DNA of 64,000 bases from assembly GCA_016202695.1 (NCBI GenBank), contig JACQOE010000029.1, positions 61,332 through 125,331 on the forward strand, read 5' to 3'. The first letter of the stretch is position 1; every line of letters starts with the position of its first letter. The notes under the pieces were generated by a model. That model saw only the letters and a program-made list of their open reading frames with translations. It was not told where the DNA came from and searched no databases. The translations under genes and the position numbers were made by a program. The DNA comes from Pseudomonadota bacterium (GTDB lineage: Bacteria > Pseudomonadota > Alphaproteobacteria > JACQOE01). This document shows positions 3,249 through 58,947 of the stretch, one piece after another.

Positions 3249-3846
3249 CCCGAGCGAAAGCCTCGCCGTCGTCCACGTCCTCCAGCACCTCGAGCAGCAG
3301 CACCCGGTCACGCCTCAGGTTCGCCAAGGTGTCGGAGAGCGCGTGCGGCCCCGAGAAGCGCACCCCCCGGAACGGATCGAGCCGCCGCGGCCGGCGGCGA
3401 AATCCGACCAGCCAGTAGCCGCCGTCGGCCGCCGGGCCGAGGACGGCGTCGAATCGTCCGAGCGCGGCGAAGGCCCGGGCAACGTGGCCGGGACCGAGGC
3501 CCGGCACGTCGGTGCCGACGATCACCACCGGCCCCGGCGGAAGCGTGCGCACCGGGCGGGCCATCCGCCGGCCGATATCGCCCCTGCCCTGCCCGATCCG
3601 CCGCCAGCCGCGCGGCCAGACCCGGGCGTTTGCGACCTCGGAGTCGGGGGTGAGGGCGAGCCATCGGTCCCAGCGCCGATCGCGCCCCAGCCCGCGCAGG
3701 AGGGCGAACGCCGTTCGCCTGTAGAAGATCCAGGCGCCGAGCGCACCGATGTCGCGGGCGAGCCGCCGTTTCACCCGGCCGAGGTGGGGGGCGCGGGCAA
3801 AGACGACCAGATGCCGGCGCGGGCGCAGGGCCGGGCCCTCAGCCAT
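3214..3846 (-). CDS. DUF2064 / TIGR04282-like glycosyltransferase-fold protein
   Basis: HLVVFARAP...VIVGTDVP...GPAADGGYWLVG pattern of DUF2064; start placed at MAEGPAL (aa11 of track ORF); 8-nt overlap with upstream GT2 stop. Confidence 0.7.
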   Translation of the reverse strand: MAEGPALRPRRHLVVFARAPHLGRVKRRLARDIGALGAWIFYRRTAFALLRGLGRDRRWDRWLALTPDSEVANARVWPRGWRRIGQGRGDIGRRMARPVRTLPPGPVVIVGTDVPGLGPGHVARAFAALGRFDAVLGPAADGGYWLVGFRRRPRRLDPFRGVRFSGPHALSDTLANLRRDRVLLLEVLEDVDDGEAFARVSPGRARPGAP

Positions 3847-4528
3847 AGAGCCGGGCCAACAGCCGGGGCGGCACACCCAGCAGGTAGAGCGCGAGGCAGA
3901 GGAGGTTGCGAAGCGGCCTCAGCCAGTAGCCGCCCTCGCGGTAGCGCACGCTTGAGGTCCGCGCCTCGGCGGCGAGGATCGTGAGCCGGTGCCGGCCGAC
4001 GCGGCGCACGATCGCCACGTCCTCCATGATCGGGATCGGCTCGAAGCCGCCGATCTCGCGGTAAAAGGGGGCGCGGATCAGGAGCCCCTGATCGCCGTAG
4101 ACGAGGCCAAGGACCCGGGCGCGCAACCGGGCCAAGCGCTCGATCCGCCGGGCCGCGGGCGCGGGATCGTCGAGGGCGAAACGGAAGGCAGCCGCGCGCC
4201 GGGCGTTCGCGGGGTCGGCGAGGAACTGGGCGGCGACTCCGGCCCAGCCCGAGGCGAGCCGCGTATCGGCGTGCAGGAACAGAAGCCAGTCGCCGCCCGC
4301 GGCCTCGGCCCCGGCACGAAGCTGGACGCCCCGGCCGCGCGGGGCCGAGACAACCCGCGCACCACATCGGCCGGCGAGGTCGGCGGTGGCGTCGGTCGAA
4401 CCGGAGTCGGCGACGATGACCTCGATCTCGAGGCCCGCGCCCGCGGCCTCGCCCAGAGCGCCGAGCGTGGCGCCGAGGCTCGCGCCCGCCTGCCAAGTCG
4501 GGATCACCACGCTGATGTCCACTCCCAT
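3839..4528 (-). CDS. Family 2 glycosyltransferase (TIGR04283-like), partner of DUF2064
   Basis: Real start at internal Met293 of the 521-aa track ORF (MGVDISVVIPTWQ...); GT2 DxD-type N-terminus; the N-terminal 292 codons of the track ORF are R/G-rich and rejected. Confidence 0.75.
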   Translation of the reverse strand: MGVDISVVIPTWQAGASLGATLGALGEAAGAGLEIEVIVADSGSTDATADLAGRCGARVVSAPRGRGVQLRAGAEAAGGDWLLFLHADTRLASGWAGVAAQFLADPANARRAAAFRFALDDPAPAARRIERLARLRARVLGLVYGDQGLLIRAPFYREIGGFEPIPIMEDVAIVRRVGRHRLTILAAEARTSSVRYREGGYWLRPLRNLLCLALYLLGVPPRLLARLYG

Positions 4529-4780
4529 CCACTCGGCCTTCGCCCCACGCCCCGAGCCGTTCCGCGTCCTCCATCGGCACCATAGCCGAGCGCCGGCGGA
4601 GGCGCGAGCGGGAGGGGCGAAACTTTCCCTGGAATGGGACCCAATACCGGCTTGGCATGCCCCCGGAACCCACGATATCTTGTGGGTACAATGCGGTCCG
4701 TTCGCAGCGGCTTGGGCGGCAGACGGCCAAACGGGCAATGATGGGGGCTTCGGCCCACTCGCGGACAAGGAGCTTCGCCG

Positions 4781-5011
4781 ATGACCGAGAGACGACAAGC
4801 CAGGGCGACGCCGAGCGCCCTCGACGCCCTCAGCAGGCACTTCAGCCGCCTCGCCGAAACCTCGGCCGGCGGCCCGGCGGCGAAGGTATGGAAAGAGGCG
4901 GCCGCGGTCGACTACCGGAGCGCCAACCCCTTCCGCTACGACATGGAGTGGAAGGACGTGAGCGTGCTGGTCAACGCCCTCAAAGGCAACACCGACAAGC
5001 CGAAGGGCTGA
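4781..5011 (+). CDS. Small hypothetical protein (76 aa)
   Basis: Strong AAGGAG RBS 8 nt upstream of ATG; non-biased composition (W, K, D, Y); no recognised family. Confidence 0.45.
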   Translation: MTERRQARATPSALDALSRHFSRLAETSAGGPAAKVWKEAAAVDYRSANPFRYDMEWKDVSVLVNALKGNTDKPKG

Positions 5012-5110
5012 GGCCGGGAGACGCCGTCCGCGCCCGCGGAGGCGCTGCCGCTTTATGATCTGTCGTCTTCGTTCTTGATTTGTTTCCATTGTTCCGGTTA
5101 GGCTCGGCCG

Positions 5111-6238
5111 ATGGATCGGTCCGACCCCCTCGCGCCCCGACCCGCCTGCCCGCAGAAGGCCCGCGGCGCGATCGGCAATCCTACGGGGCGCTTCGAGCGT
5201 GAGGTACGGGTCCCGGTTTCCGACGGATGGGACGAGGGCGGGGCTCCGTCCGAGGGGCCGCGCCTCGCTACGACCCTCACCCCCGATGCGAGCCGCACCA
5301 TCATCGCCCGGAACGACTCGCCGGACGTGGGCTTCGAGCAGTCGATCAATCCCTACCGCGGCTGCGAGCACGGCTGCGTCTATTGCTACGCCCGCCCGAC
5401 CCACGGCTATCTCGGGCTTTCGGCCGGACTCGACTTCGAGACCAGGCTCTTCTTCAAGCCCGATGCGGCCCGCCTATTGGAGGCCGAGCTTCGCCGGCCC
5501 GGCTATCGGGTGCGCACCATCGCGCTCGGCACCAACACCGATCCCTTTCAACCCGTCGAGCGGCGACTCCGCATCACCCGCCAGGTGCTGGAGGTGCTTG
5601 CCGCCTTCAACCATCCGGTCGGCATCGTCACCAAGTCGGCACTGGTGACGCGCGATATTGACATCCTCGCGCCGATGGCGGCCAAGGGGCTGGCGCGGGT
5701 GATGCTCTCGGTCACCACCCTGGAGGCCGCGCTCGCGCATAAGCTCGAGCCGCGCGCGGCGCTCCCCGCCAAGCGACTCGAGGCCGTTCGCGTCCTCGCC
5801 GAGGCCGGAGTGCCGGCGGGGGTGATGGTCGCGCCGGTGATCCCGGCCCTCACCGACTGGGAGATCGAGCGCATCCTCGAGGCCGCGCGCGGGGCGGGGG
5901 CGGACCGGGCCGGCTACACCCTGCTCCGGCTCCCCCACGAGGTGAAGGACCTCTTCACCGACTGGCTTTCCGCCCACGCGCCGCTCAAGGCGCGCCACGT
6001 CCTCAGCCTGGTCCGCCAGTGCCGGAACGGCCTCCTCTACGACTCCGGCTTCGGCACCCGCATGACCGGCGAGGGACCGTATGCGCGCCTCATCGCGACG
6101 CGCTTCGAGGCCGCCTGCCGCAGGCTCGGCCTCAACCGCCCGCCGGGCGCCGGAGGCGCGCACCGCGAGCAGGACACCTCGCTCTTCCGCCCGCCGCCGC
6201 AGGCCGGCGACCAGCTCGCGCTCTTCGCGCACGACTGA
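5111..6238 (+). CDS. Radical SAM protein, PA0069 / SplB-like (DNA-repair-photolyase-like) family
   Basis: CEHGCVYC CxxxCxxC cluster after NPYRGC; length and overall pattern of PA0069-family radical SAM. Confidence 0.8.
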   Translation: MDRSDPLAPRPACPQKARGAIGNPTGRFEREVRVPVSDGWDEGGAPSEGPRLATTLTPDASRTIIARNDSPDVGFEQSINPYRGCEHGCVYCYARPTHGYLGLSAGLDFETRLFFKPDAARLLEAELRRPGYRVRTIALGTNTDPFQPVERRLRITRQVLEVLAAFNHPVGIVTKSALVTRDIDILAPMAAKGLARVMLSVTTLEAALAHKLEPRAALPAKRLEAVRVLAEAGVPAGVMVAPVIPALTDWEIERILEAARGAGADRAGYTLLRLPHEVKDLFTDWLSAHAPLKARHVLSLVRQCRNGLLYDSGFGTRMTGEGPYARLIATRFEAACRRLGLNRPPGAGGAHREQDTSLFRPPPQAGDQLALFAHD

Positions 6239-16517: not shown

Positions 16518-19414
<2,897 letters not shown>

Positions 19415-19418
<4 letters not shown>

Positions 19419-19792
19419 TGGCCGCCTCCGACGTGGGCCTTGTAGGCCGCCTCGTCCATTAGCTCCTTAAGCTCGCCGGGATTGTCGATGCTGATGCGAA
19501 AGAACCAGCCCTCGCCGGCCGGGTCCTGGTTGACCTTGGCCGGGTCGTTGGGAAGCGCCTGATTGACGGCCACGATCTTGCCGCTGACCGGGGCGTAGAC
19601 CTCGCTCGCCGCCTTCACCGACTCGACCACCGCGGCCTCGACCCCCTTGGCGAGCTTCCTGCCGACCTCGGGCAACTCGACGAACACCACGTCGCCCAGT
19701 TGCTGCTGGGCGTAGTCGGTGATGCCGACAACCCCCTCCTTGCCCTCGATCCGGATCCACTCGTGTTCCTTGGTGAACTTGAGCTCGCTCAT
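19415..19792 (-). CDS. gcvH: Glycine cleavage system H protein
   Basis: Start at Met179 of track ORF ([13 protein letters not shown]...); lipoyl-Lys motif [12 protein letters not shown]. Confidence 0.95.
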
Positions 19793-19841: not shown

Positions 19842-20954
19842 TCAGCCGCGGTGGTAGCGGTGGGGCACGAACGGCATCGGCACCACCTTCGCCGGCATCT
19901 CCTTGCCGCGCACCACGAGCCTGAGCTCGGTGCCGGCGGCGGCGAAGTCCCGCCGCACGTAGCCCATGGCGATCGGCCGGCCGAGGGTGGGGCCGAAGCC
20001 GCCGCTGGTGACCTCGCCGATCCTCTCGCCGGCGGCGCTGAAGACTTCGGTATGGGCGCGGGCGGGCTGCCGGCCCTCGGGTAGGATCCCCACCCTGAGG
20101 CGCGGCGCACCCTCGGCGAGCTGACGACGGATGATCTCGGCGCCGGGGAAACCCCCGCCCTCTCGCCGGCGCTTGGCGATGGTCCAGGAGAGGTCGGCCT
20201 CGACCGGCGTGGTGGTGGTGTCGATGTCGCTGCCATAGAGGCAGAGCCCGGCCTCGAGGCGGAGCGAATCGCGCGCCCCCAACCCGACCGGCTTGACCCC
20301 GGGCTCGGCAAGGAGCGCTCGAGCAAGCGCCACCGCCTTCGCGGCCACGACCGAGATCTCGAAGCCGTCCTCGCCGGTGTAGCCGGAGCGGGTAGCCTCG
20401 CAGGCGATTCCGGCGACGCGGAGCGCCGACCGGCTCATGAACGCCATGCGGTCGGCGCCGGGCGATAGGCAGCCCATCACCGCCGCCGCCCTCGGCCCCT
20501 GGAGCGCAACCAGCGCCCGCTCCGGCATTTCCTCCAGGTGCACCCCGCCGGAGAGGTTGGCGCGGAGATGGGCGAAGTCTTGCTCCTTGCAGGCGGCGTT
20601 GACCACCAGGAAGAGCGCCTCGCCGAGGTTCGTGACCATGAGGTCGTCGAGGATGCCGCCCTGGGCGTTCGTGAAGACGGTGTAACGCTGGCGCCCGGGC
20701 TTGAGCTCGACGATGTTACCGGGCACCAGCCGCTCCAGCGCCTCGGCCGCACCCGCGCCCACGATCCGGGCCTGCCCCATGTGCGAGACATCGAACAGGC
20801 CGGCGCCTTGGCGGGTGGCCGCGTGCTCGGCGATAATCCCCTCATACTGCACCGGCATCTCGTAGCCGGCGAAGGGCACCAGCCGCGCGCCCAGCTCGAC
20901 GTGGAGCTCGTGCAGGGGCGTTCTCTTAAGGGAAGCGAGGGATGGCTCGCCCAT
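19842..20954 (-). CDS. gcvT: Glycine cleavage system T protein (aminomethyltransferase)
   Basis: N-terminal LKRTPLHELH..., full GcvT fold. Confidence 0.95.
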   Translation of the reverse strand: MGEPSLASLKRTPLHELHVELGARLVPFAGYEMPVQYEGIIAEHAATRQGAGLFDVSHMGQARIVGAGAAEALERLVPGNIVELKPGRQRYTVFTNAQGGILDDLMVTNLGEALFLVVNAACKEQDFAHLRANLSGGVHLEEMPERALVALQGPRAAAVMGCLSPGADRMAFMSRSALRVAGIACEATRSGYTGEDGFEISVVAAKAVALARALLAEPGVKPVGLGARDSLRLEAGLCLYGSDIDTTTTPVEADLSWTIAKRRREGGGFPGAEIIRRQLAEGAPRLRVGILPEGRQPARAHTEVFSAAGERIGEVTSGGFGPTLGRPIAMGYVRRDFAAAGTELRLVVRGKEMPAKVVPMPFVPHRYHRG

Positions 20955-21004
20955 CAGGTCCTCCGAATGTGTGTCGCCCTTCGCATCCGCCGAACCCCGG
21001 ATGC

Positions 21005-21225
21005 CGGGCGCCCCCCTCTGTCTCGGGACCTGAAAGATTCACCCGCGCGGATGCGGGTTTACATCTTCGGTGAGGCGCCTGCCTGCGCCTGCTTTCCAGA
21101 GTGTCATCGCCCTGCGGTCCTTTTGCCTGAGAGTTTCGGGGGCCCGTTGCTCCTTCGGCGCCGGCCGCGGCCGAGTCCGTCCGCAAATGGGACGCCCTCG
21201 CCCGCCGGTCTCTCCCGCAGGGGTC
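21005..21225 (-). promoter_or_regulatory. Tandem glycine riboswitch (two aptamers) in gcvT leader
   Basis: Reverse complement reads GGGAGAGACCGG...GGCGCCGAAGGAGCAACGGG...GAAACTCTCAGGCAAAAGGACCGCAG (aptamer 1) then CTCTGGAAAGCAGG...CACCGAAGATG...CTTTCAGGTCCCGAGACAGAGG (aptamer 2), matching the glycine-riboswitch consensus; boundaries approximate. Confidence 0.8.
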
Positions 21226-21340
21226 GTATGACTCCTCGCCGCCGGACCCCTCGCCCCGAGGGCGCGCGATCCGCCAGCACCACCCAGTTTAGTCCCTCTC
21301 CGGCCAACGTCAATGCCACCCCGGCGCGGACCCGGCAAGG

Positions 21341-28767: not shown

Positions 28768-30024
28768 TCAGGCGAGCCGAGCGGCGATCCGCTCAAGGGG
28801 TTCGAGGTTAGCGATCAGTCCCAGGGCGGCGAACGCGGGGGCCGTGCGGAAGAGTCGGCGGGCAACGGCGGTTACCGTGCCGGCGTCGATCGCGTCGATG
28901 TTGGCGATCGTCTCCTCGACCGGGACGGGGCGGCCGTAGACGTGAAGCTGCCGGGCGAGCTGCTCGCAGCGCGCCGACGTGCTTTCGAGCGACATCAGGA
29001 TGCTCGCCTTGAGTTGCGCTCTGGCGCGGATCACTTCCTCCTCGCCAACCTCGGCCGCCGCCTTCTGCAGCTCCTCGCAGACCACGGGGACGAGATCGCG
29101 GACCTCTTCCTCGCCGGTGCCGGCATAGAGCCCGAAGACGCCGTTGTCCATGTACGAGGACGAGAAGGTGTAGATGCTGTAGCAGAGGCCGCGCCGCTCA
29201 CGGACCTCCTGGAAGAGCCGCGACGACATGCCGCCGCCGAGCAGGGTGGAGAGTACCAGCCCGGCGTAGAAGTCGGGGTGCGCATAGGCGACCCCGGCGA
29301 AGCCGAGCACCATGTGCACCTGCTCGAGCGGACGGGCCTCGCGCACCTCGCCGCCCACATACTTGGCCGGATCGCCCGCGGTTGCGCGGTCGACGGGGAG
29401 CTGGTCGAAGGCCCGCGCCGCCAGCTCGACGAAAGGCTCGTGTGCGATCCGGCCGGCGGCCGAGATCACGAGCCGCGACGGGCCGTAGTGCTGATCTAGG
29501 TAGGCGCGCACCGCCTCGCGCGAGAGCGCGCGCACGCGCGCGGCCTCGCCCAACACCGAGCGGCCGAGCGCCTGGCCGGGGAAGGCCACCTCCTGAAAAC
29601 GGTCGAAGATCACGTCGTCAGGGGTATCGTTGACCTGGCCGATCTCCTGCAGGATCACCTGCCGCTCGCGCTCCAGCTCCTCGGCGTCGAAGACCGAGTG
29701 CTGGAGGATGTCGGCAAGGATGTCCAGCGCGAGGGGCACGTCGCCGTGCAGAACCTTGGCGTAGTAGGCGGTATGCTCGCGAGAGGTGTAGGCGTTGAGG
29801 TGCCCGCCCACCGACTCGATCTCCTCGGCGATCTGGCGGGCGGTGCGCCGGCGCGTGCCCTTGAAGGCCATGTGCTCGAGCATGTGGGCGACGCCGTTGA
29901 CCTCGGCCGGCTCGTGGCGGGTGCCCGCCCCGGCCCACACGCCGAGCGCCACCGTCTCCACCTGATCCATCGGGTCGGTGGCGACACGAAGCCCGCTCGT
30001 CAGGGTGGTGACGCGAACGCTCAT
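28768..30024 (-). CDS. M16-family zinc peptidase (pitrilysin/PqqL-like)
   Basis: HMLEHMAFKGT inverted zinc-binding motif HxxEH; two-domain M16 architecture. Confidence 0.85.
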   Translation of the reverse strand: MSVRVTTLTSGLRVATDPMDQVETVALGVWAGAGTRHEPAEVNGVAHMLEHMAFKGTRRRTARQIAEEIESVGGHLNAYTSREHTAYYAKVLHGDVPLALDILADILQHSVFDAEELERERQVILQEIGQVNDTPDDVIFDRFQEVAFPGQALGRSVLGEAARVRALSREAVRAYLDQHYGPSRLVISAAGRIAHEPFVELAARAFDQLPVDRATAGDPAKYVGGEVREARPLEQVHMVLGFAGVAYAHPDFYAGLVLSTLLGGGMSSRLFQEVRERRGLCYSIYTFSSSYMDNGVFGLYAGTGEEEVRDLVPVVCEELQKAAAEVGEEEVIRARAQLKASILMSLESTSARCEQLARQLHVYGRPVPVEETIANIDAIDAGTVTAVARRLFRTAPAFAALGLIANLEPLERIAARLA

Positions 30025-31427
30025 GCCGCCGCCCGCCGTCCCGCCTTGGCGCGGACGAACGCCTGGATCCGGGCGAGGTCGTTGGGCAGCACCACCAGCC
30101 GCTCCTCGAGCTCGAGGAGGTCGGCAAGGCGCGAGGGAAGCCGCGGACGCACGCCGGTCGCCCGCTCCACCGCCTCGGGGAACTTGGCCGCATGCGCGCA
30201 GGCAAGCGCGATCATCGGCACGGCCGCATCCCGCCGGCCCGCGCGCGCGGCGGCGAGACCGACGGCGGTATGCGGGTCGATCAGCTCGCCCGTCGCCCTA
30301 TAGGTCTCGCGGATGGCGGCAAGCGTGCCGGCGTCGTCGAGGCGCCGGCCGTCGAACAGCGCCTGCAAGGCCGCCAGACGCTCGTCGCTTGCGGCGAGCG
30401 CACCCGTCTCGCGGAATCGGCGCATGTCGGCGGCCAGCGCCTCGCCGTCGCGGCCGTAAAGATCGAACAGGAGGCGCTCGAAATTGCTCGACACCTGGAT
30501 GTCCATGCTCGGGCTCAAGGACGGCTCCACCGCCGCCATCTTCATCACCCCGGTCTCGAAGAAGCGGGTGAGGATGTCGTTGCGGTTTGAGGCGACGACG
30601 AAATGTGTCACCGGCAGCCCCATCCGGCGGGCGACGTAGGCGGCGTAGACGTTGCCGAAGTTGCCGGTGGGAACGGCGAAGGCGACGGCCCGATCGGGCG
30701 CGCCGAGGGCGACCCCCGCCCAGACGTAGTAAACGACCTGGGCCGCGATCCGCGCCCAGTTGATCGAGTTGACCGCCGAGAGGTTGAGCTCGTGGCGGAA
30801 GGCGGCGTCGTTGAACATCGCCTTCACCAGGTCCTGGCAATCGTCGAAGGTGCCCTCGATGGCGAGGTTGTGCACGTTGGCCGAGGCCACGGTCGTCATC
30901 TGCCGGCGCTGCACCTCGGAGACGCGGCCCCGGGGGTGGAGGATGAAGATGTCGACTGCGTCGCGGTCGCGGCAGGCCTCGATCGCGGCCGAGCCGGTGT
31001 CGCCCGAGGTCGCGCCGACGACCGTGATCCGCTCACCCCGGCGCCTCAGCAGGTGGTCGAACAGCCGGCCGAGGAGCTGGAGCGCGTAGTCCTTGAAGGC
31101 GAGCGTGGGGCCGTGGAAGAGCTCCATCAACCAGAGATTCGAGTCGAGTTGCTTGAGCGGCGCCTTGGCGGGATGGCCGAAGGGAGCATAGGCGGCGGCG
31201 ACGAGCGCCGCGAAGTCGGAGTCGGGAATGCTGCCGCCGAGGAAGGGCCGCATCACCCGCATCGCGACCTCGGCGTAGGAAAGCCCCCGGAGCGCGCGCA
31301 TCTCCGCGTCCTCGAGCCGCGGAAAGGTCTCGGGCACGTAGAGGCCGCCGTCGCTCGCGAGTCCCGCGAGCAGAACCTCGTCGAAGCTGAGTGCGGGGGC
31401 GCGGCCCCGCGTGCTGACGTAGCGCAC
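30021..31427 (-). CDS. thrC: Threonine synthase
   Basis: GTG start at codon 254 of track ORF (MRYVSTRG...) preceded by AAGAGG; PLP Lys motif FKD; upstream 253 codons R-rich and rejected. Confidence 0.9.
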   Translation of the reverse strand: MRYVSTRGRAPALSFDEVLLAGLASDGGLYVPETFPRLEDAEMRALRGLSYAEVAMRVMRPFLGGSIPDSDFAALVAAAYAPFGHPAKAPLKQLDSNLWLMELFHGPTLAFKDYALQLLGRLFDHLLRRRGERITVVGATSGDTGSAAIEACRDRDAVDIFILHPRGRVSEVQRRQMTTVASANVHNLAIEGTFDDCQDLVKAMFNDAAFRHELNLSAVNSINWARIAAQVVYYVWAGVALGAPDRAVAFAVPTGNFGNVYAAYVARRMGLPVTHFVVASNRNDILTRFFETGVMKMAAVEPSLSPSMDIQVSSNFERLLFDLYGRDGEALAADMRRFRETGALAASDERLAALQALFDGRRLDDAGTLAAIRETYRATGELIDPHTAVGLAAARAGRRDAAVPMIALACAHAAKFPEAVERATGVRPRLPSRLADLLELEERLVVLPNDLARIQAFVRAKAGRRAAA

Positions 31428-31528
31428 CGCCTCTTGTCCCGTGTTTGCCGTCCTCGGCCGGTCGCGGATACTAGACCGGGGCGCGCGCGAGCGACAAGCG
31501 CCCCTCGAGGCGCGGGCGGCTGCGCCCC

Positions 31529-33016
31529 TCAAGGAAGGTAGCGCCGCTCGAGGTGGGTCTTGAACGCCTCCACGTCCAGCGGCCGGCCGGTCACCTGCAG
31601 GAGGAGGTCGTCGGTGGCAAGCAGCGAGCCCTTCGCGTGCACGTGCGTGCGCAGCCATTCGACCAGCGGTGCGAAGTCGCCGCGGCCGATCGCCGGCAGG
31701 ATGTCGGGCCGCTCGCGCACCGCCGCCTGGAAGAGCTGGGCCGCCATGACGGCCCCGAGCGTGTAGCTGGGGAAGTAACCGAACGCGCCCTCGTACCAGT
31801 GGATGTCCTGGAGGCAGCCCTCGCGCTGGTCGGCCGGCTCGATGCCGAGGAGTCGCTGCATGCCCTTGCGCCAGGCGTCGGGGAGGTCGGCCACCTGCAG
31901 CCGCCCCTCGATCAACGCCTTCTCCAGCCGGTAACGCAGGATCACGTGGGCGGGATAGGTGACCTCGTCGGCCTCGACCCGGATGAGGCCGGGGCGGACA
32001 CGGGTGCAAAGGCGGATCATGTTGCCGAGCGACCACTCCTCGCCGTCGACGCCGAAGTGCTCGCGGATCAGGTTGACGGCGAAGGCGAGGAACACTCGCG
32101 AGCGCGAGACCTGCATCTCGACCAGGAGCGCCTGGCTCTCGTGCACCGCCATGCTGCGGGCCCGCCCCACCGGCTGCTCGCACCACTCCGTCGGCAGCCC
32201 CCGCTCGTAGAGGGCGTGGCCGGTCTCGTGCAGCACCGCCATCAGCGACTCGCTGAAGTCGTGCTCCTTGAAACGGGTGGTCACCCGCACGTCACCCGGC
32301 GCGCCGGCGCAGAAGGGGTGCAGGCTCACGTCCAGCCGGCCGTGCGCGAAATCGAATCCGAGTCGCTCCATGAAGCTGCGCGCGAGCCGGAGCTGGGCAT
32401 CCTCTGGGAACGGGCCGGCGGGGCTTCGCGGCGGGCTCTCCCGCGCCTGGTGATCGAGCACGCGGGGGAGGAAATCGGGCAGGAACCGCTCGAGTTCGCC
32501 AAACACCGCACTGAGGCGCGCGGCGCGCATCCCCGGCTCGAAGGCGTCGAGGAGCGCGTCGTAGGCGTCGCAGGAGAGCGCCTGCGCCTTCGCCTGAGCG
32601 GCCTCGCGCTCGAGCGTGACCACCTCGGCGAGGTGGTCCCCGACCAAGCCGAAATCCGCCGCCGCTCGCGCCCGGCGCCAAGCCATGCCGCAGGCCGCCT
32701 GGGCGCGGGCGCGGGCCTCGACGAGATCGGCGGGAAGCGCGCTCGCATGGATCCGCTGCCGCTCCATCTCGCGAACGTTCGCCCGCTGCCACTCGCCGAG
32801 GCCGTCCTCGGACATCACCTCCTCAAGGAGCTCGGCGAGGCGTGGATCGGTGATCTCGCGGTGGGCGAGCACGGCGAGCGTCGCCAACTGCTCGCCCCTT
32901 GTCTCGGCCCCGCCCGGCGGCATGACCGTCGCCATGTCCCAGTGGAGGAGCTGGCTGATGCCGGAGAGATGCGTTAGCCGCCGGAAGCGGTCTTCGAGTT
33001 CGGCATAAGCGGGCAT
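31529..33016 (-). CDS. M32 carboxypeptidase (Taq-type zinc carboxypeptidase)
   Basis: HETGHALYE HEXXH motif; N-terminal MPAYAELEDRF...LLHWD... typical of M32; ATG at 33016 preceded by AAGAGG RBS. Confidence 0.85.
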   Translation of the reverse strand: MPAYAELEDRFRRLTHLSGISQLLHWDMATVMPPGGAETRGEQLATLAVLAHREITDPRLAELLEEVMSEDGLGEWQRANVREMERQRIHASALPADLVEARARAQAACGMAWRRARAAADFGLVGDHLAEVVTLEREAAQAKAQALSCDAYDALLDAFEPGMRAARLSAVFGELERFLPDFLPRVLDHQARESPPRSPAGPFPEDAQLRLARSFMERLGFDFAHGRLDVSLHPFCAGAPGDVRVTTRFKEHDFSESLMAVLHETGHALYERGLPTEWCEQPVGRARSMAVHESQALLVEMQVSRSRVFLAFAVNLIREHFGVDGEEWSLGNMIRLCTRVRPGLIRVEADEVTYPAHVILRYRLEKALIEGRLQVADLPDAWRKGMQRLLGIEPADQREGCLQDIHWYEGAFGYFPSYTLGAVMAAQLFQAAVRERPDILPAIGRGDFAPLVEWLRTHVHAKGSLLATDDLLLQVTGRPLDVEAFKTHLERRYLP

Positions 33017-33841
33017 TCGGACCTCTTGTCTCTTGCTCTGGTGCCCCTTCCGGCCCGGCCGGCGCGACGGCCGCAGGCGGCGCGCGAGGGCGAGCACGTA
33101 CATCACCCCAAGCGCCCCGGCCAATGAAAACCATGTGAGCGCATACTGCAAATGGTCGCTGGGGAAGGCGACGTCCACCTGCCAGGGGATCGGAAGCCCG
33201 GCCGGAGCCCCCTCGCCCCTCTCGGCGCGAGTCGCGACCGCCCAGACGGTGAACGGCGCTGCTCGCCCGAGCCCGACATGGGCGGCGATGGCCGGGATGT
33301 CGGTCGAGAACCACTGTTCCTTCTCGGGCTTGTTGGCCGGCGTGAAGGGGCCGGACGGGGAGGGCAGCACGACGAGTCCCTCGACCTCCAGCCGCCCCTC
33401 GATCCGGCTCTCGGGGCGCCGGTCGGGGGCCACGCGCTCGTCGGGTACGAAGCCCCGGTTGACCAGCACCGGAAGCCCCTCGTCGCGCAGCAGCGGGGTA
33501 ATCACCTCCGCGCCCGCCTCACTGCGCCGGGTGCGGGGGCGAATCAGGATCTCGGCCGAGTGGAGGAATTGCCCGCCGAGGCGCACCCTGCGGAAGGCCC
33601 AGGCCCCCAGCTCCCCGGGGGTCGCCTCGTCGAGGGCGACGGGCAGCGCCACCGCCTCGCTCCTGGCGCGCGCCTCGAACAGCCGGACGAGCGCCGCCTT
33701 CTCCTCCCTCCGGTCGAGCTGCCACAGCCCGAGCCCGACCAGGAGGGCGACGAGGACGGCAACGATCAGGGTCGGCCACAAGCCCGGATGCGCGATCCAG
33801 CGAGAGAATCTGGCGCCCCACATGGGATTCGCCGGGCGCAC
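33017..33841 (-). CDS. SURF1 family cytochrome oxidase assembly protein; lacks its own stop codon and reads in frame into the M32 gene
   Basis: Two TM helices flanking periplasmic domain, characteristic SURF1 pattern (WQL.R...HLQYALTWFSLAGAL); same reading frame as M32 ORF with no intervening stop. Confidence 0.7.
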
Positions 33842-34261
33842 TCAGGCGCCGCCCGGCCCTCGCCTCTCCTCGTCCCGACCGCCCCCCGAGTCGGCGGCCA
33901 GCATCTCCGCGACGCGGTGCCGGTACTGGAGCGCGACCAGCACCCCCTTGAACAGCCTGAGGAGCACGACCGCGAGTGCGAGGATGGCCGGCGGCCAGAC
34001 GATGGCGTGCAGCCACAAGGGCGGCTCGAAGGCGATCTCGATGCCGAACGCCAGCCCGACCGCGGCGACGCCGAGGAAGAAGATCACGAACACCGCCGGC
34101 CCGTCGCCAGCGTCGTGGTTGCGCAAGTCCAGCCCGCAGGCGCGGCAACGCTCGGCGACCGAGAGCAGGCCCGAGAAGAGCGGCCCGGCGGCGCAGCGCG
34201 GGCACCGACCCCTAAGGCCGGTGGCGATGGGGGACTGCGGCGGGTAGTACGCGTTGCCCAC
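33842..34261 (-). CDS. DUF983 zinc-ribbon membrane protein (cox-cluster associated)
   Basis: CPRC...CRAC Zn-ribbon N-terminus + 2 TM; conserved position between ctaE and surf1. Confidence 0.7.
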   Translation of the reverse strand: MGNAYYPPQSPIATGLRGRCPRCAAGPLFSGLLSVAERCRACGLDLRNHDAGDGPAVFVIFFLGVAAVGLAFGIEIAFEPPLWLHAIVWPPAILALAVVLLRLFKGVLVALQYRHRVAEMLAADSGGGRDEERRGPGGA

Positions 34262-39682: not shown

Positions 39683-41590
39683 TCAGCGCCGCTCCCGGCC
39701 CGCCCGAGGCGCCTTGGCCTTGATCGCCAGGTTCGTCTCCACGTAGTCGAGCAGGACGGCAAGCGACTGGGCCACGTCCTGGCTTCCGGTGTCGACCACG
39801 AGCTCGGGGCTCCCCGGTGGTTCGTAGGGCGCGGAGATGCCTGTGAAGTCGGGGATCTCGCCCCGGCGCGCCTTCTTGTAGAGGCCCTTGGGATCGCGTG
39901 CCTCGCAGGTGGCGAGGTCGGCCCGGACGTAAATCTCGTGGAAGAGGTCGGGGGCGATCGCGCGCACCCGGTCGCGATCCGAGCGGTAGGGCGAGATGAA
40001 GGCGGTGATCACCAGCATCCCCGCGCGGGCGAAAAGCGCCGCCACCTCGCCCACGCGGCGGATGTTCTCGGCCCGGTCGTCGGGGCTGAAGCCGAGGTCG
40101 GCCGAGAGCCCGTGGCGGATGTTGTCGCCGTCGAGCACGAACACCTGGTAGCCCTTGCGGAACAACCGCTGCTCGAGCTCGAGGGCGAGCGTGGTCTTTC
40201 CCGCGCCCGAGAGCCCGGTGAGCCAGAGGATGCCGCTCTTGTGGCCGTTGACCAGCGAGCGGCTCTCCTGCCCGACGCGGTGATCGACGCTGGTGATGTT
40301 GGTCGACTTCACCGTCAGCGCGTGGCGTTGGTCGGGGTAGCCGCGCATGTTGATGATGCCGCCGCCGACGATGTCGTCGTCGTCGAGGAGCACGACGCGC
40401 CCGGTGGCGGGGTTGGCGGTGAAGGGGTCGAGGACCACGGTCGAGCGCGCGCGCAGCACGACCTCGGCCACCCCGTTGCGCTCGACGACGCCGTCGCTGC
40501 GCGCCGAGAGGTCGGCGACGTCGATGACCGTCTCGACCTCCTGCACCTGTAGCTGCAGCTCGGCGGTGTTGAGCCTGGCCTTGTAGCGGTCGCCCGCGGC
40601 AAGCGGCCGGCGGCCCAGCCAGAAAAGGCGCGCGCGGAAGACGGTGCTGAGCACGGGGGCCGCCTCGAGGTGGCTGATCACCTCGCCGCGCTCGACGAAG
40701 ATCTGCTCATCGAGCGTGATCCCGATGCTCTGGCCCGTGGCCGCGGCGAGGACGGGCTGCGCCGCCCCCCAGGCCTCGATCGAGGAGACCCTGGCGGTCT
40801 TGTTGGAGGGCGAGAGGAGTACCGTGTCCCCCACCCTGAGCCGCCCCGACTCGATCCGCCCGGCGATGATCCGGCGTTGGTCGAATTTGTAGATGTCCTG
40901 GATGGGAAGTCGGAGCGGCAGATCGGTGGGGCGCGGCGCCGGCGCGAGCTGGTCGAGGGCCTGGACCAGCGTCATACCCTCGTACCAATCCATGGCACCG
41001 CCGGCGGCCCCGCGCCGGGCGACGTTGTCGCCGGTCTGGGCCGAGAGCGGAACGATATGGGTGGGGAGGATGCCAAGCTCGGCGAGACAGGCCCGCGCGT
41101 CGGCCGCAACATCGGCGAAGGCGGTGAAGGAAAAGTCGGCCAAGTCCATCTTGTTGACCGCCACCGCGACCTGACGGATGCCGAGGAGGTGGACGAGATA
41201 GGCGTGGCGGCGCGTCTGCTCCTGCATGCCCTCGGTCACATCGACGACGAGCAGGGCGGCATCCGCGGGCGCCGCCCCGGTGATCATGTTCCTGACGAAC
41301 TCGCGGTGGCCGGGGGTGTCGATGATGACCAAGGCGCGCCGCTCGGTGCACAGCCGGGTTTGGGTGGTGTCGATGCTGAGGCCCTGCTCGCGCTCGGCCT
41401 GGAGCGCGTCCAGGAGAAACGCCCACTCGAATGGCATTCCCCGGCGCCCGCACATCGCGCGCACCGCCTCGATACGACCCTCGGCAAGACCGCCAGTCTC
41501 CGCCAGCATCCGCCCGATCAGCGTCGACTTGCCGTGCTGCGCGTGGCCGACGACGACGACCTTGACCGTCTGTGGATCGTGCTCGGCCAT
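39683..41590 (-). CDS. cysNC: Bifunctional sulfate adenylyltransferase subunit 1 / adenylylsulfate kinase (CysN-CysC fusion)
   Basis: N-terminal GTPase GHAQHGKST...DTPGH...NKMD; C-terminal APS kinase GLSGAGKTT. Confidence 0.9.
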   Translation of the reverse strand: MAEHDPQTVKVVVVGHAQHGKSTLIGRMLAETGGLAEGRIEAVRAMCGRRGMPFEWAFLLDALQAEREQGLSIDTTQTRLCTERRALVIIDTPGHREFVRNMITGAAPADAALLVVDVTEGMQEQTRRHAYLVHLLGIRQVAVAVNKMDLADFSFTAFADVAADARACLAELGILPTHIVPLSAQTGDNVARRGAAGGAMDWYEGMTLVQALDQLAPAPRPTDLPLRLPIQDIYKFDQRRIIAGRIESGRLRVGDTVLLSPSNKTARVSSIEAWGAAQPVLAAATGQSIGITLDEQIFVERGEVISHLEAAPVLSTVFRARLFWLGRRPLAAGDRYKARLNTAELQLQVQEVETVIDVADLSARSDGVVERNGVAEVVLRARSTVVLDPFTANPATGRVVLLDDDDIVGGGIINMRGYPDQRHALTVKSTNITSVDHRVGQESRSLVNGHKSGILWLTGLSGAGKTTLALELEQRLFRKGYQVFVLDGDNIRHGLSADLGFSPDDRAENIRRVGEVAALFARAGMLVITAFISPYRSDRDRVRAIAPDLFHEIYVRADLATCEARDPKGLYKKARRGEIPDFTGISAPYEPPGSPELVVDTGSQDVAQSLAVLLDYVETNLAIKAKAPRAGRERR

Positions 41591-41629
41591 CCTGCCCGCT
41601 CCGGTCCTCAGCTTTCCCCTCCCCGTCCG

Positions 41630-55559: not shown

Positions 55560-57344
55560 CTAAAGCGGCCAGACCCAGAGGATCATCGGCACCGCCACCG
55601 CGACGACGAGCCCATCCAGGGGAAGCCCCATCCGCCAGTAGTCCCCGAATCGGTAGCCGCCCGGCCCCATCACCAGCGTGTTGTTCTGATGGCCGATCGG
55701 GGTGAGGAACGCGCACGACGCCCCCACCGCCACCGCCATCAGGAAGGGATCGGGACTCACGCCCAGGGCGGCCGCCAAGTCGACCCCGATCGGCGCCATC
55801 ACCACCGCCGTCGCCGCATTGTTCATGACGTCGGTCAACGCCATGGTCGCGATCATCAGCCCCCCGATCATCATCGCCGGCGGCACCTCCCCGGCGCCGG
55901 CGAGGATCGTTCGCGCGATCACGGCGGTCGCGCCGGTCGACTCGAGCGCGCCGCCGAGCGGGATCATCGAGCCCAGGAGCACGATCACCGGCCAGTCGAT
56001 GGCCTGGTAGAAGACGCGCGGCGGCACCACGCGCAACAGCGCCATCAGCGCCACCGCGGCCGAGAACGCGACCGCGACCGGCAACAGCCCGAGCGCGGTG
56101 AGCGCGAGCGCGCCAGCGAACACCAGCGCCGGCACCGTCGCCCGCCGGGAGGCTCCCACCCGCACCCCGCGCTCGGCGAGCGGCAAGAGGCCGGAGCCGG
56201 AGGCGAGCTCGGCCAGCGCCTCCTCCTCGCCCTGCAGGAGAAGCACGTCACCGGCCCGGAATCGCACGTTGCGCAGCCGCGCGCCGACCCGGCGCCCCTG
56301 CCGGGCGATGGCAAGCAGGTTGACGCCGAAGCGGGTGCGAAGCCTCAGGCCCAAGGGGCTCTGTCCCTCCAGCGGCGAGTCGGGCGCGACCACCGCCTCG
56401 ATCAACTGGATCTCGTCGGAGCGGAGCGTCTCGGCGGTCACCTTCTCGTCGCCGACGAGCTCGAGGCCGGTGCGCTTGAGGAGCGCGTCCAGGTCCTCCG
56501 GGTTGGCCTCGAGGATCAACACGTCGCCGGCGCGGATCGGCTCGAAGCGGACGCGCCCGAGAAGCCGGCGCTCGCCCCGCACCAAGCCGAGCACGAACAC
56601 CTCGCCCTCCCCCACCTCGCGCTCGATCACCCGCAGGTCCTCGCCCTCGAGCTTCGAGCCCTCGGGCACGCGCACCTCGGTGACGTAGCCGCCGATGTCG
56701 AAGGCATCGGCGAGCGCGCCCTTGGCCCGTCGTCCCCGGTGCGGGATCAGCCGCCAGCCGACCAGGGTGACGAAGAGCACGCCGGCGATCGCGACCGCCA
56801 GCCCGACGGGCGCGAAGTCGAAGATGCGGAAGGGCTCGCCCGCCACGCCCGCCCGGACGCTGGCGATGATGATGTTGGGCGGCGTGCCGATCTGGGTGAT
56901 CAGCCCGCCGAGGATCGCCGCGAAGGCGAGCGGCATCAGCACCACCGCCGGCGATCGCCCCGCCTTAGCCGAGGTCCGCAACGCGACCGGCATCAGAAGG
57001 GCGAGCGCGCCGACGTTGTTCATGAAGGCCGAAAGCGCCATGGCGACGAGGCCGAGCGCGGTGACATGCAGCGCGGGACGGGCGGCCAAGGGCGCGATCC
57101 GGCGCGCGAGCGGATCGAGCGCGCCCGAGTGGGCGAGCGCCCGGCTGATCACCAGCACCATCGCCACCGTCACCACCGCGGGATGGCCGAAGCCGAGGAA
57201 GGCGTCGGCCGCGGGAACGACGCCGGCGAGCACGCCGGCGATCAGCGCCCCGAACGCGACCAGGTCGTAGCGCCAGCGCCCGACAAAGAACAGGACGAGC
57301 GCGGCGAGGAGGATCAGCAGGATGGCGGCTTGCGCGGCGCTCAT
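55560..57344 (-). CDS. SLC13/DASS-family anion permease with two central TrkA-C domains
   Basis: Start at internal Met (MSAAQAAILLILL...), ATGA overlap with upstream transporter; TM-TrkA_C-TrkA_C-TM architecture. Confidence 0.85.
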   Translation of the reverse strand: MSAAQAAILLILLAALVLFFVGRWRYDLVAFGALIAGVLAGVVPAADAFLGFGHPAVVTVAMVLVISRALAHSGALDPLARRIAPLAARPALHVTALGLVAMALSAFMNNVGALALLMPVALRTSAKAGRSPAVVLMPLAFAAILGGLITQIGTPPNIIIASVRAGVAGEPFRIFDFAPVGLAVAIAGVLFVTLVGWRLIPHRGRRAKGALADAFDIGGYVTEVRVPEGSKLEGEDLRVIEREVGEGEVFVLGLVRGERRLLGRVRFEPIRAGDVLILEANPEDLDALLKRTGLELVGDEKVTAETLRSDEIQLIEAVVAPDSPLEGQSPLGLRLRTRFGVNLLAIARQGRRVGARLRNVRFRAGDVLLLQGEEEALAELASGSGLLPLAERGVRVGASRRATVPALVFAGALALTALGLLPVAVAFSAAVALMALLRVVPPRVFYQAIDWPVIVLLGSMIPLGGALESTGATAVIARTILAGAGEVPPAMMIGGLMIATMALTDVMNNAATAVVMAPIGVDLAAALGVSPDPFLMAVAVGASCAFLTPIGHQNNTLVMGPGGYRFGDYWRMGLPLDGLVVAVAVPMILWVWPL

Positions 57345-58813
57345 GATCGCGAGGCGTCCTCCTGGCCGAGGGCGGGCACCGGCCGGGCAGCGAACCAGGT
57401 GCGGCGAAGCCGCGCCGCGCCCGCCAGGTAGCCCGTGGTGCAGAGCGCGAGCCCGAAGACGTTGACGCCGAGGTCGTCGGCGTAGGCGCCGACGCCGAGG
57501 TCGATCCAGGCGGGCATGATCTCGAGCCCGGCAGCCCCCTCCAACGTCATGATTGCGCCGAGCGCGATCCCCGGCCAGAAGGCGAGGTGGAAGCTCGCCC
57601 GTCTGGCGGTCGGGAGGAAGGAGAGGAGGAAGATGGGCGCGAGCCCCATCATCATCGTCCCCGAGATGGTGGTCGCGGCGATGATCGCCGGGCCGGCCCT
57701 GTCGCCGAGATAGATGCCGAGAAGCGGCAAGTTGCCGGCGACGGCGATGGCGATCATCACCCACCGACCGATGCGCTTCTCGCGCTCGCCCGGGTCGGCG
57801 GCGACGTTGCCCCAGTCCCGCGCCGCGAGCTTGGCCGAACTGGCGAAGGTGGAATCCAGGGTCGAGCCGGCACTGGTCAGCATGATGGCGTTGAACACGA
57901 GAAGCATCGGCAGGCCGAACGCGGTCGGCACCGCCACCGCCGCCGCGCCCGAGAGCCCGAGCGCGCGGGCATACACGCCGACCAGCGAGAAGAGGACGAT
58001 GAAGGCGCCGCCGATCAGCCCAGCGAGCACGAATCCGGCGAGCATGGTCCGGGGCCGGGTGAGGAACCCGCGATCGGTGAGCACCGGGTCGTGGAAGGGA
58101 TAGCTCAGCACCTGCACCGCGGCGAGGGCGGCGAAGGTGAGCCCGGCCAAGCCCACCTCGGGGGCCACCGCAGGAAGCCCCTGCGCCGCCAGCGGCGGCA
58201 TGACCACGATCAGGATCACGACCAGCAGCACGGCGGCCATCACCATCTGCCCGCCATCGGTGACCAGACTCGATCGCAGCCCCCCGACCCAGCTGTAATA
58301 GAGGGTGAAGCCGGTGATCGCGGCCACCGCGATCCAGTACTCGAGGCTCCCTTCCGCCCCGAAGTAGAGCGCGCCCACCTTGGTGTTCGACCACACCTCG
58401 TTGAAGAGCCGGATCGCGACCGCAACCAGGAAGAACCGCGCCGCGACGGGCCCGTACTTGGCGACCAGGAAGGCGGAGAGCGAGGCGTGGCCGCCGCGGG
58501 CGCGGATGAGGTAGATCGCCAGCCCGGCGACGAGGAAGCTCAGGTAATAGACACCGTAGCCGACGCCGCCGACCAGACCGAAAGCCTTGCCGAGGTCGGC
58601 AGCGTTGGCGATCGACTTGGCGAAGATCCAGGTGATCGCGGCGCTGAAAACCAAGAGCCAGAGGCCGGGCTCCGCGCCCGCCTCGGAGCGACCGGCGAAG
58701 AATTGCACCGGCGAGGCGCGCCGCGGGCTCATCGCCCAGACCAGAAGCCCGTAACCGACGAGCACCGCCCAGGGCGCCGCCATCACGGCAAGCGCGGGAT
58801 CAAGATGAGTCAT
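57341..58813 (-). CDS. Sodium:solute symporter (SSS) family transporter
   Basis: 13-TM profile, GGLRS..TD motif region. Confidence 0.7.
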   Translation of the reverse strand: MTHLDPALAVMAAPWAVLVGYGLLVWAMSPRRASPVQFFAGRSEAGAEPGLWLLVFSAAITWIFAKSIANAADLGKAFGLVGGVGYGVYYLSFLVAGLAIYLIRARGGHASLSAFLVAKYGPVAARFFLVAVAIRLFNEVWSNTKVGALYFGAEGSLEYWIAVAAITGFTLYYSWVGGLRSSLVTDGGQMVMAAVLLVVILIVVMPPLAAQGLPAVAPEVGLAGLTFAALAAVQVLSYPFHDPVLTDRGFLTRPRTMLAGFVLAGLIGGAFIVLFSLVGVYARALGLSGAAAVAVPTAFGLPMLLVFNAIMLTSAGSTLDSTFASSAKLAARDWGNVAADPGEREKRIGRWVMIAIAVAGNLPLLGIYLGDRAGPAIIAATTISGTMMMGLAPIFLLSFLPTARRASFHLAFWPGIALGAIMTLEGAAGLEIMPAWIDLGVGAYADDLGVNVFGLALCTTGYLAGAARLRRTWFAARPVPALGQEDASRS

Positions 58814-58947
58814 GCCGGCCCCTTACCTCCTTCGTCGACTCCGTCGCCCCGCTATTAGTCGGAAGTTCCCGCCCGCCTCAGCAACACACGAAGGTGTGAT
58901 CGGGGGCACGCTTTTCCGCCCCCGGCGACATTTGAGATACTGAGGCG

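Follow-up and report, generated by a model that had tools for sequence, protein, structure and literature searches.

On the minus strand of a 64,000-nt stretch of a Pseudomonadota metagenome-assembled genome (MAG; assembly GCA_016202695.1, contig JACQOE010000029.1, positions 61,332 to 125,331; hereafter the window), we found that surf1 and the gene for an M32 carboxypeptidase share one uninterrupted frame of 770 codons, with no stop codon between the two. The most probable account, to which we give a probability of roughly 60%, is a lineage-specific loss of the surf1 stop codon, yielding a membrane-anchored SURF1-M32 protein of about 86 kDa together with a free 55.5 kDa M32 enzyme made by internal initiation. 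The fusion is, on this account, an isolated accident of one lineage and not a conserved architecture or a new kind of protein system; all of the 55 related surf1-M32 pairs that we compared consist of separate genes, each with its own surf1 stop codon.

The fused SURF1-M32 frame

The open reading frame (ORF) is a single one opening with GTG (Table 1). An alternative in-frame ATG at 33823, six codons after the GTG, is the start chosen by NCBI, whose record of the fusion (MBI4183427.1, 764 aa, from a 149 kb contig) is entitled 'MAG: hypothetical protein HY521_05465 [Proteobacteria bacterium]'. According to Pfam, SURF1 (PF02104) occupies aa 29-241 and covers profile positions 2-204 of 205 (E 4e-47; 161.6 bits against a cut-off of 23.4), while Peptidase_M32 (PF02074) occupies aa 282-768 and covers positions 2-489 of 489 (E 2.8e-164; 547.8 bits against a cut-off of 25.1). 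The G+C content of third codon positions (GC3) is about 0.90-0.91 in the SURF1 half and the M32 half alike, similar to that of the neighbouring genes. A chance long ORF of this 71% GC genome is ruled out by the full-length matches of both domains and by the coding-like GC3. An earlier note, made from the letters of the window, had described one 770-codon frame containing a complete SURF1 and a complete M32, and this description is borne out, on the minus strand. The SURF1 frame contains no TGA, TAA or TAG anywhere ahead of 31531; the 'genuine read-through' that the same note had listed among its options is therefore not applicable, as no stop codon is present to be read through.

The SURF1 part is recognizable by its motifs as well as by its profile. 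WQ..R...K and H..Y..TW are present as LWQLDRREEK, after the first transmembrane (TM) helix, and as SDHLQYALTWF, before the second, and the W, Q, R, K, H, Y, T and W of these motifs are invariant in alignment A2, which comprises 27 sequences. The NCBIfam model SURF1_Mycobac gives 94.9 bits for the SURF1 part, a value under the model's cut-off. The whole fusion has just two hydrophobic segments, both of them SURF1 TM helices, and none in the M32 part; TM2 lines up with TM2 of 54 relatives, and the N-terminal stretch of SURF1 and the tail after TM2 are both basic. SURF1 proteins are described as having two TM segments with an extracytoplasmic domain between them (PMC9145763). The window SURF1 probably has the same design, with two TM helices around a large extracytoplasmic domain, and since only two hydrophobic segments are present and the tail is basic, its C-terminus is expected to be cytoplasmic. 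In these two helices it is like Surf1c of Paracoccus denitrificans and Surf1 of Rhodobacter sphaeroides, the haem a chaperones of the aa3 oxidase, and it also shares with them the position at the end of the cta cluster and the His-containing motif before TM2 (PMC9145763); this motif, proposed to provide a haem a ligand, is conserved in the window protein. Yet Surf1c and Surf1 stop a few residues past TM2, whereas the window SURF1 continues into a 495-aa peptidase.

In the M32 part, all of the signature motifs of the family are present (HPF, DVRVT, HETGH, HESQ, IRVEAD and GCLQDIHW, at M32 residues 233, 242, 263, 292, 345 and 400), and they sit in invariant columns of alignment A1. Identity with M32 proteins of Rhodospirillales is 55-60%. 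As in the carboxypeptidase Taq family (MEROPS M32; Thermus aquaticus, Pyrococcus furiosus, Bacillus subtilis YpwA), the Pfam match is full length and the signature set HPF, DxRxT, HExxH, HESQ, IRxxAD, GxxQDxHW is complete. Stand-alone M32 enzymes, members of the carboxypeptidase Taq family included, are soluble and cytosolic, whereas the N-terminus of the window M32 would hang on a membrane protein unless internal initiation were used.

The junction and the start signals of M32

The protein sequence at the junction is ...ALARRLRPSRRPGRKGHQSKRQEVR, followed by MPAYAELEDRF of M32, and the stretch KRQEVRMPAYAELEDR of the fusion frame spans it. The tail after TM2 amounts to 22 aa, while the tails of relatives have 5-20 aa and each ends in a stop codon. 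Tail codons 1-17 show 100% GC3. Among the last five, three are very rare A-ending codons, namely AGA (1 of 112 Arg codons), CAA (1 of 36 Gln codons) and CGA (7 of 112 Arg codons), as counted in a reference set of 1,357 codons. With about 10% of codons ending in A or T as background, the binomial probability of at least three such codons in five is about 0.009, a post hoc figure. Four of the five codons just ahead of the ATG, and seven of the nine, would each need only one substitution to become a stop codon.

The AAGAGG that the earlier note had placed ahead of an M32 ATG at 33016 is indeed there, at a spacing of 5 nt. A motif ACAAGAGG is found upstream of both the thrC GTG (31427-31440, minus strand) and the M32 ATG (33017-33029, minus strand), 2 nt and 5 nt from the respective start, and its occurrence ahead of two starts suggests that it may be the usual ribosome-binding sequence of this organism. 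No excess of structure over shuffled sequence was seen in the RNA around the M32 start (z +1.27). Neither an internal promoter nor a terminator was found between the SURF1 and M32 domains, and no Rfam element was found in the SURF1-M32 region. The junction does not read as a linker evolved as coding sequence and devoid of internal translation signals: AAGAGG and ATG are kept, and three of the five last codons are the very rare ones named above. The longer tail, these five codons, the AAGAGG and the M32 ATG, in line with the start of stand-alone homologues, together fit a former untranslated spacer of 9-15 nt that bears a Shine-Dalgarno (SD) sequence and is now translated.

Separate surf1-M32 pairs in relatives

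The genes around the fusion follow, on the minus strand, the order cysNC, COX2, COX1, ctaB (UbiA), Cox11, COX3, DUF983, SURF1-M32, thrC and M16 peptidase; past M16 come DUF179 on the plus strand and DsbD on the minus strand. For comparison, an M32 profile served to retrieve 80 genome loci and the fusion protein to retrieve 80 metagenome loci, and all were scanned by tblastn. Upstream DNA was sufficient in 144 loci, and in 54 of these SURF1 is the gene immediately ahead of M32 on the same strand; with locus L166 the number of pairs comes to 55 (pair loci L001, L007-L056, L085-L130, L145-L155 and L166). ThrC follows M32 immediately in 51 loci, and 19 have the complete order SURF1-M32-ThrC. The pairing is present, among others, in Azospirillum, Limibacillus, Pelagibius, Kiloniellaceae, Reyranellaceae, Stellaceae, Aliidongia, Dongia and many Acetobacteraceae, and extends to AT-rich marine contigs in which M32 identity is only 30-33% and the two genes overlap by 8 nt. 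In Limibacillus halophilus the order runs from ctaB through COX3, DUF983, SURF1 (3708-4463), M32 (4473-5996) and thrC to M16, with SURF1 and M32 as separate genes, and a Rhodospirillaceae MAG shows ctaB-M32-ThrC-M16 followed by DUF179 and DsbD. A chimeric assembly join was considered and rejected, because the gene order on both sides of the junction is identical to that of relatives.

The earlier note had called it unusual for an M32 gene to sit between the cox/surf1 block and thrC. This proved wrong, because SURF1-M32 adjacency recurs in 55 loci, with ThrC in 19, and the order SURF1-M32-ThrC had already been noted for Rhodospirillales (PMC10411912). The window shares the order Cox11-COX3-DUF983-SURF1-M32-ThrC-M16B with the separate pairs that close the cta/cox operon in bacteria of the Rhodospirillales type, such as Limibacillus halophilus (L001), Azospirillum (L011 and L080) and Stellaceae (L020) (PMC10411912). 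It shares with them also the full length of both domains, an M32 start lying in or abutting the 3' end of SURF1, and an SD sequence inside the SURF1 tail. The difference resides in the junction: a stop codon ends SURF1 in 55/55 of these pairs and the two frames differ in 54/55, whereas in the window the stop is absent and the genes are in frame.

The layout of the 55 junctions, a count that leaves out two error-ridden contigs, is dominated by 4-nt overlaps (27 pairs; 25 ATGA and 2 GTGA). Longer overlaps were seen in 13 pairs, gaps of 0-30 nt in eight, larger gaps in four and a 1-nt overlap in two; in one pair the M32 start could not be assigned. Overlapping stop and start codons are a layout usually associated with coupling of termination and reinitiation. 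The window does not belong to the ATGA type, as its SURF1 frame reads CGA ATG CCC. Relative to M32, the SURF1 frame is +1 in 40 pairs, +2 in 14 and the same in one only. This sole in-frame pair is that of Limibacillus (L001), with TGA, 9 nt and ATG, one substitution short of the fusion described here. In turn, L166, which is 60% identical and the closest M32 relative with a readable upstream SURF1, shows the ordinary ATGA overlap, its SURF1 ending in ...VYHRQNR*. Loss of the stop codon in the common ATGA layout only lengthens SURF1 out of frame, and it is only the in-frame layout that yields a fusion by one substitution; since most pairs are out of frame, a true fusion is rare.

Two loci show unusually long SURF1 frames. 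In L087 (5765-5856) SURF1 does not end at the overlapping stop of its close relative L085 (3395) but continues for 94 nt into M32, and in L043 (5001-5071) SURF1 overlaps M32 by 73 nt. Both may be examples of out-of-frame extension of SURF1 after stop loss; the C-terminal tail of SURF1 appears to be evolutionarily labile at these loci, or else they contain further sequence errors.

Other proteins that cross the junction

Similar fusions were sought with HMMER among 1.84 billion representatives, the query being SURF1 plus the first 120 aa of M32, and with a profile search of 5.8 billion clusters. Proteins crossing the junction were P0063 and P0100 from the former and P0212, P0214 and P0252, which match both Pfam domains, from the latter. 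P0063 is out of frame in stretches of its SURF1 moiety and again at the C-terminus; P0212 and P0252 begin inside SURF1 and finish in long out-of-frame M32 sequence; P0214 begins inside SURF1 and breaks off soon after HPF; P0100, a fragment, has only 206 aa. The traced contigs, L163 (5001-6717) and L164 (5001-7305), carry broken neighbouring genes, and one of them has a coverage of 2.48x, the other a split M32. All five proteins are, to all appearances, indel artefacts, with P0212, P0214 and P0252 assessed from sequence only. They share with the window protein both domains and in-frame continuity over the same junction, but are truncated or out of frame, whereas the window ORF is clean and full length. 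Neither search returned a clean full-length SURF1-M32 fusion from elsewhere, a weak negative since both also missed the window's own protein, P0001, although it is in the collection. None of the 55 related pairs is fused, and artefacts are the only other junction-spanning proteins that searches of imperfect sensitivity returned. There is a lesson for annotation here: most of the SURF1-M32 'fusions' in public protein sets are products of frameshifts, and counts of domain architectures for this pair would be inflated by them.

Origin of the fused frame

The sequence of events that we favour would begin with surf1 and M32 genes lying head to tail in the same frame, in a layout like that of Limibacillus halophilus (TGA, 9-nt spacer, ATG). 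A single base substitution would then have removed the surf1 stop codon, so that ribosomes starting at surf1 would pass the former spacer and the M32 start and produce a protein of 85.9 kDa. Its SURF1 part would insert with both ends in the cytoplasm and the large domain outside, and M32 would be tethered to the cytoplasmic face of the membrane by the basic tail of 22 residues; the enzyme would thus face the cytoplasm, the normal compartment of M32 enzymes. As AAGAGG and the ATG five nucleotides beyond it are still in place, free M32 of 55.5 kDa is probably made as well, by de novo internal initiation. The single frame, the completeness of both domains, AAGAGG with its ATG, the conserved gene order and the stop in all 55 relatives are direct observations; that the allele is real, and that a stable fusion protein results from it, is our inference. 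The other long genes of the window, including those for SMC (1202 aa) and GcvP (982 aa) and COX1, were checked and are intact at full length, and the assembly is therefore not indel-ridden. Should the allele be real, it would offer a clean example of how two closely packed genes in the same frame can give a composite membrane-anchored enzyme in a single step, and, with the downstream gene keeping its own start signals, of two products from one locus.

Several observations weigh against this account. The fusion is represented by one sequence from one MAG; neither the fusion protein nor the neighbouring COX3 matched a contig in exact look-ups, and the 90% cluster of the fusion has one member. 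With the nearest M32 only about 60% identical and no close relative available, the ancestral position of the stop and the age of the event lie beyond reconstruction, and phylogeny does not support the word 'recent' that the earlier note had attached to the stop loss. Moreover, the constraint imposed by the SD sequence could by itself account for the rare codons. A single event in one MAG shows no sign of selection and may be a base-calling error.

An error in the sequence or consensus of the MAG is accordingly the foremost competitor, rather unlikely in our estimate but a serious one. Either a real surf1 stop would lie just ahead of M32, or a 1-nt indel in the GC-rich tail (CGGCCGGGCCGGAAGGGGC) would hide a short overlap, and the products would be two separate proteins. 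It fits an error that the window is the sole stop-less case beside 55 of 55 related pairs with a stop, that seven of the last nine codons need only one substitution to become a stop, and that the MAG lacks an independent copy; in addition, the five artefactual proteins described above mark this junction as prone to artefactual fusion. Against this, there are no other broken or fused genes in the window, where both domains and the long genes are full length. Substitution errors are rare in consensus assemblies. For an indel, the alternative frames are informative: in the +1 frame a TAA is reached after 41 nt of M32, and the remaining frame overlaps M32 by about 190 nt, overlaps that make an indel possible but less parsimonious than a substitution, and the first 17 codons of the tail have perfect GC3 in the present frame. 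Stop-codon loss and sequence error, both named as options by the earlier note, are thus the two readings still standing.

It could also be asked whether the pairing has a function. M32 might be a genuine partner of SURF1 in the assembly of the aa3 oxidase of Rhodospirillales-type alphaproteobacteria, for instance by trimming or clearing peptides at the cytoplasmic face, which we regard as quite improbable; if it were so, a tolerated covalent fusion would be natural 'Rosetta stone' evidence that both proteins act at the same site. A selected functional fusion of this kind, in which SURF1 and M32 would cooperate at the cytoplasmic face in cytochrome oxidase biogenesis and the covalent form would have been fixed in the lineage, is very improbable in our view. 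The topology is compatible with it, and the pairing is widespread and tight, mostly with overlapping stop and start codons, even at 30-33% M32 identity, which suggests co-expression. However, the window holds the only clean case beside 55 separate pairs, with none in two large protein searches, and its junction resembles an un-ameliorated spacer with a kept SD sequence and ATG. Adjacency is itself weak evidence of joint function, because the neighbouring thrC and M16B presumably have no tie to oxidase assembly, none being evident. We know of no functional link between M32 and oxidase assembly and, to our knowledge, the linkage of surf1 and M32 has been noted only as synteny. Whatever its cause, the widespread overlap of the surf1 stop with the M32 start across alphaproteobacteria, to which the fusion draws attention, is the most interesting by-product of this analysis.

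Recoding, by which a programmed frameshift or ribosome drop-off at the rare AGA or CGA would end surf1 translation near the junction and leave little or no fusion protein, is scarcely credible: the rare Arg codons beside the internal SD-like AAGAGG bear what we presume to be a superficial likeness to the prfB +1 frameshift context, but the junction has no slippery site and no local RNA structure beyond that of shuffled sequence, the shifted frames run on into M32, no relative has the layout, and no feature supporting frameshift or drop-off was found.

Neighbouring genes and other features of the window

The coordinates of the fusion, its parts and the other features are given in Table 1. In the spacer between M32 and thrC, folding was no better than that of shuffled sequence.

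Table 1. Features of the fused SURF1-M32 frame and of other loci in the 64,000-nt window.
Feature	Position	Strand	Description
SURF1-M32 ORF	31529..33841	-	GTG start 33841, TGA stop 31531..31529
SURF1 moiety	33017..33841	-	aa 1-275, 30.4 kDa, isoelectric point 11
TM helix 1 of SURF1, predicted	33719..33781	-	aa ~21-41, Kyte-Doolittle hydropathy peak
TM helix 2 of SURF1, predicted	33083..33145	-	aa ~233-253, ends ...YALTWFSLAGALGVMYVLALA, hydropathy
Basic, probably cytoplasmic tail/linker RRLRPSRRPGRKGHQSKRQEVR	33017..33082	-	22 aa, 10 K/R, between TM2 YALTWFSLAGALGVMYVLALA and M32
Five spacer-like codons AGA CAA GAG GTC CGA	33017..33031	-	Codon usage
SD-like AAGAGG	33022..33027	-	5 nt (TCCGA) ahead of M32 ATG
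M32 ATG	33014..33016	-	Coincides with start of stand-alone M32 homologues (MxAY...)
M32 carboxypeptidase moiety	31532..33016	-	495 aa, 55.5 kDa, PF02074
HETGH zinc-binding motif	32216..32230	-	Sequence motif
DUF983 gene, upstream	33842..34261	-	TGA stop abuts SURF1 GTG
thrC (threonine synthase), downstream	30021..31427	-	GTG start, ~100 nt past M32 stop
CysN/CysC bifunctional ORF	39683-41629	-	GTP_EFTU and APS kinase domains, 648 aa, immediately upstream of COX2
Tandem glycine riboswitch aptamers	21014-21227	-	Rfam RF00504, 63.4 and 43.6 bits

The window contains a second bifunctional frame, CysN/CysC, which is a well-known conserved fusion, unlike the singleton SURF1-M32. The glycine riboswitch lies upstream of gcvT (19842-21038), with gcvP further downstream (16518-19466), an ordinary arrangement. 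A 493-aa ORF at 57341-58822 on the minus strand has a coding-like GC3 of 0.91 and no Pfam match at E <= 1e-5.

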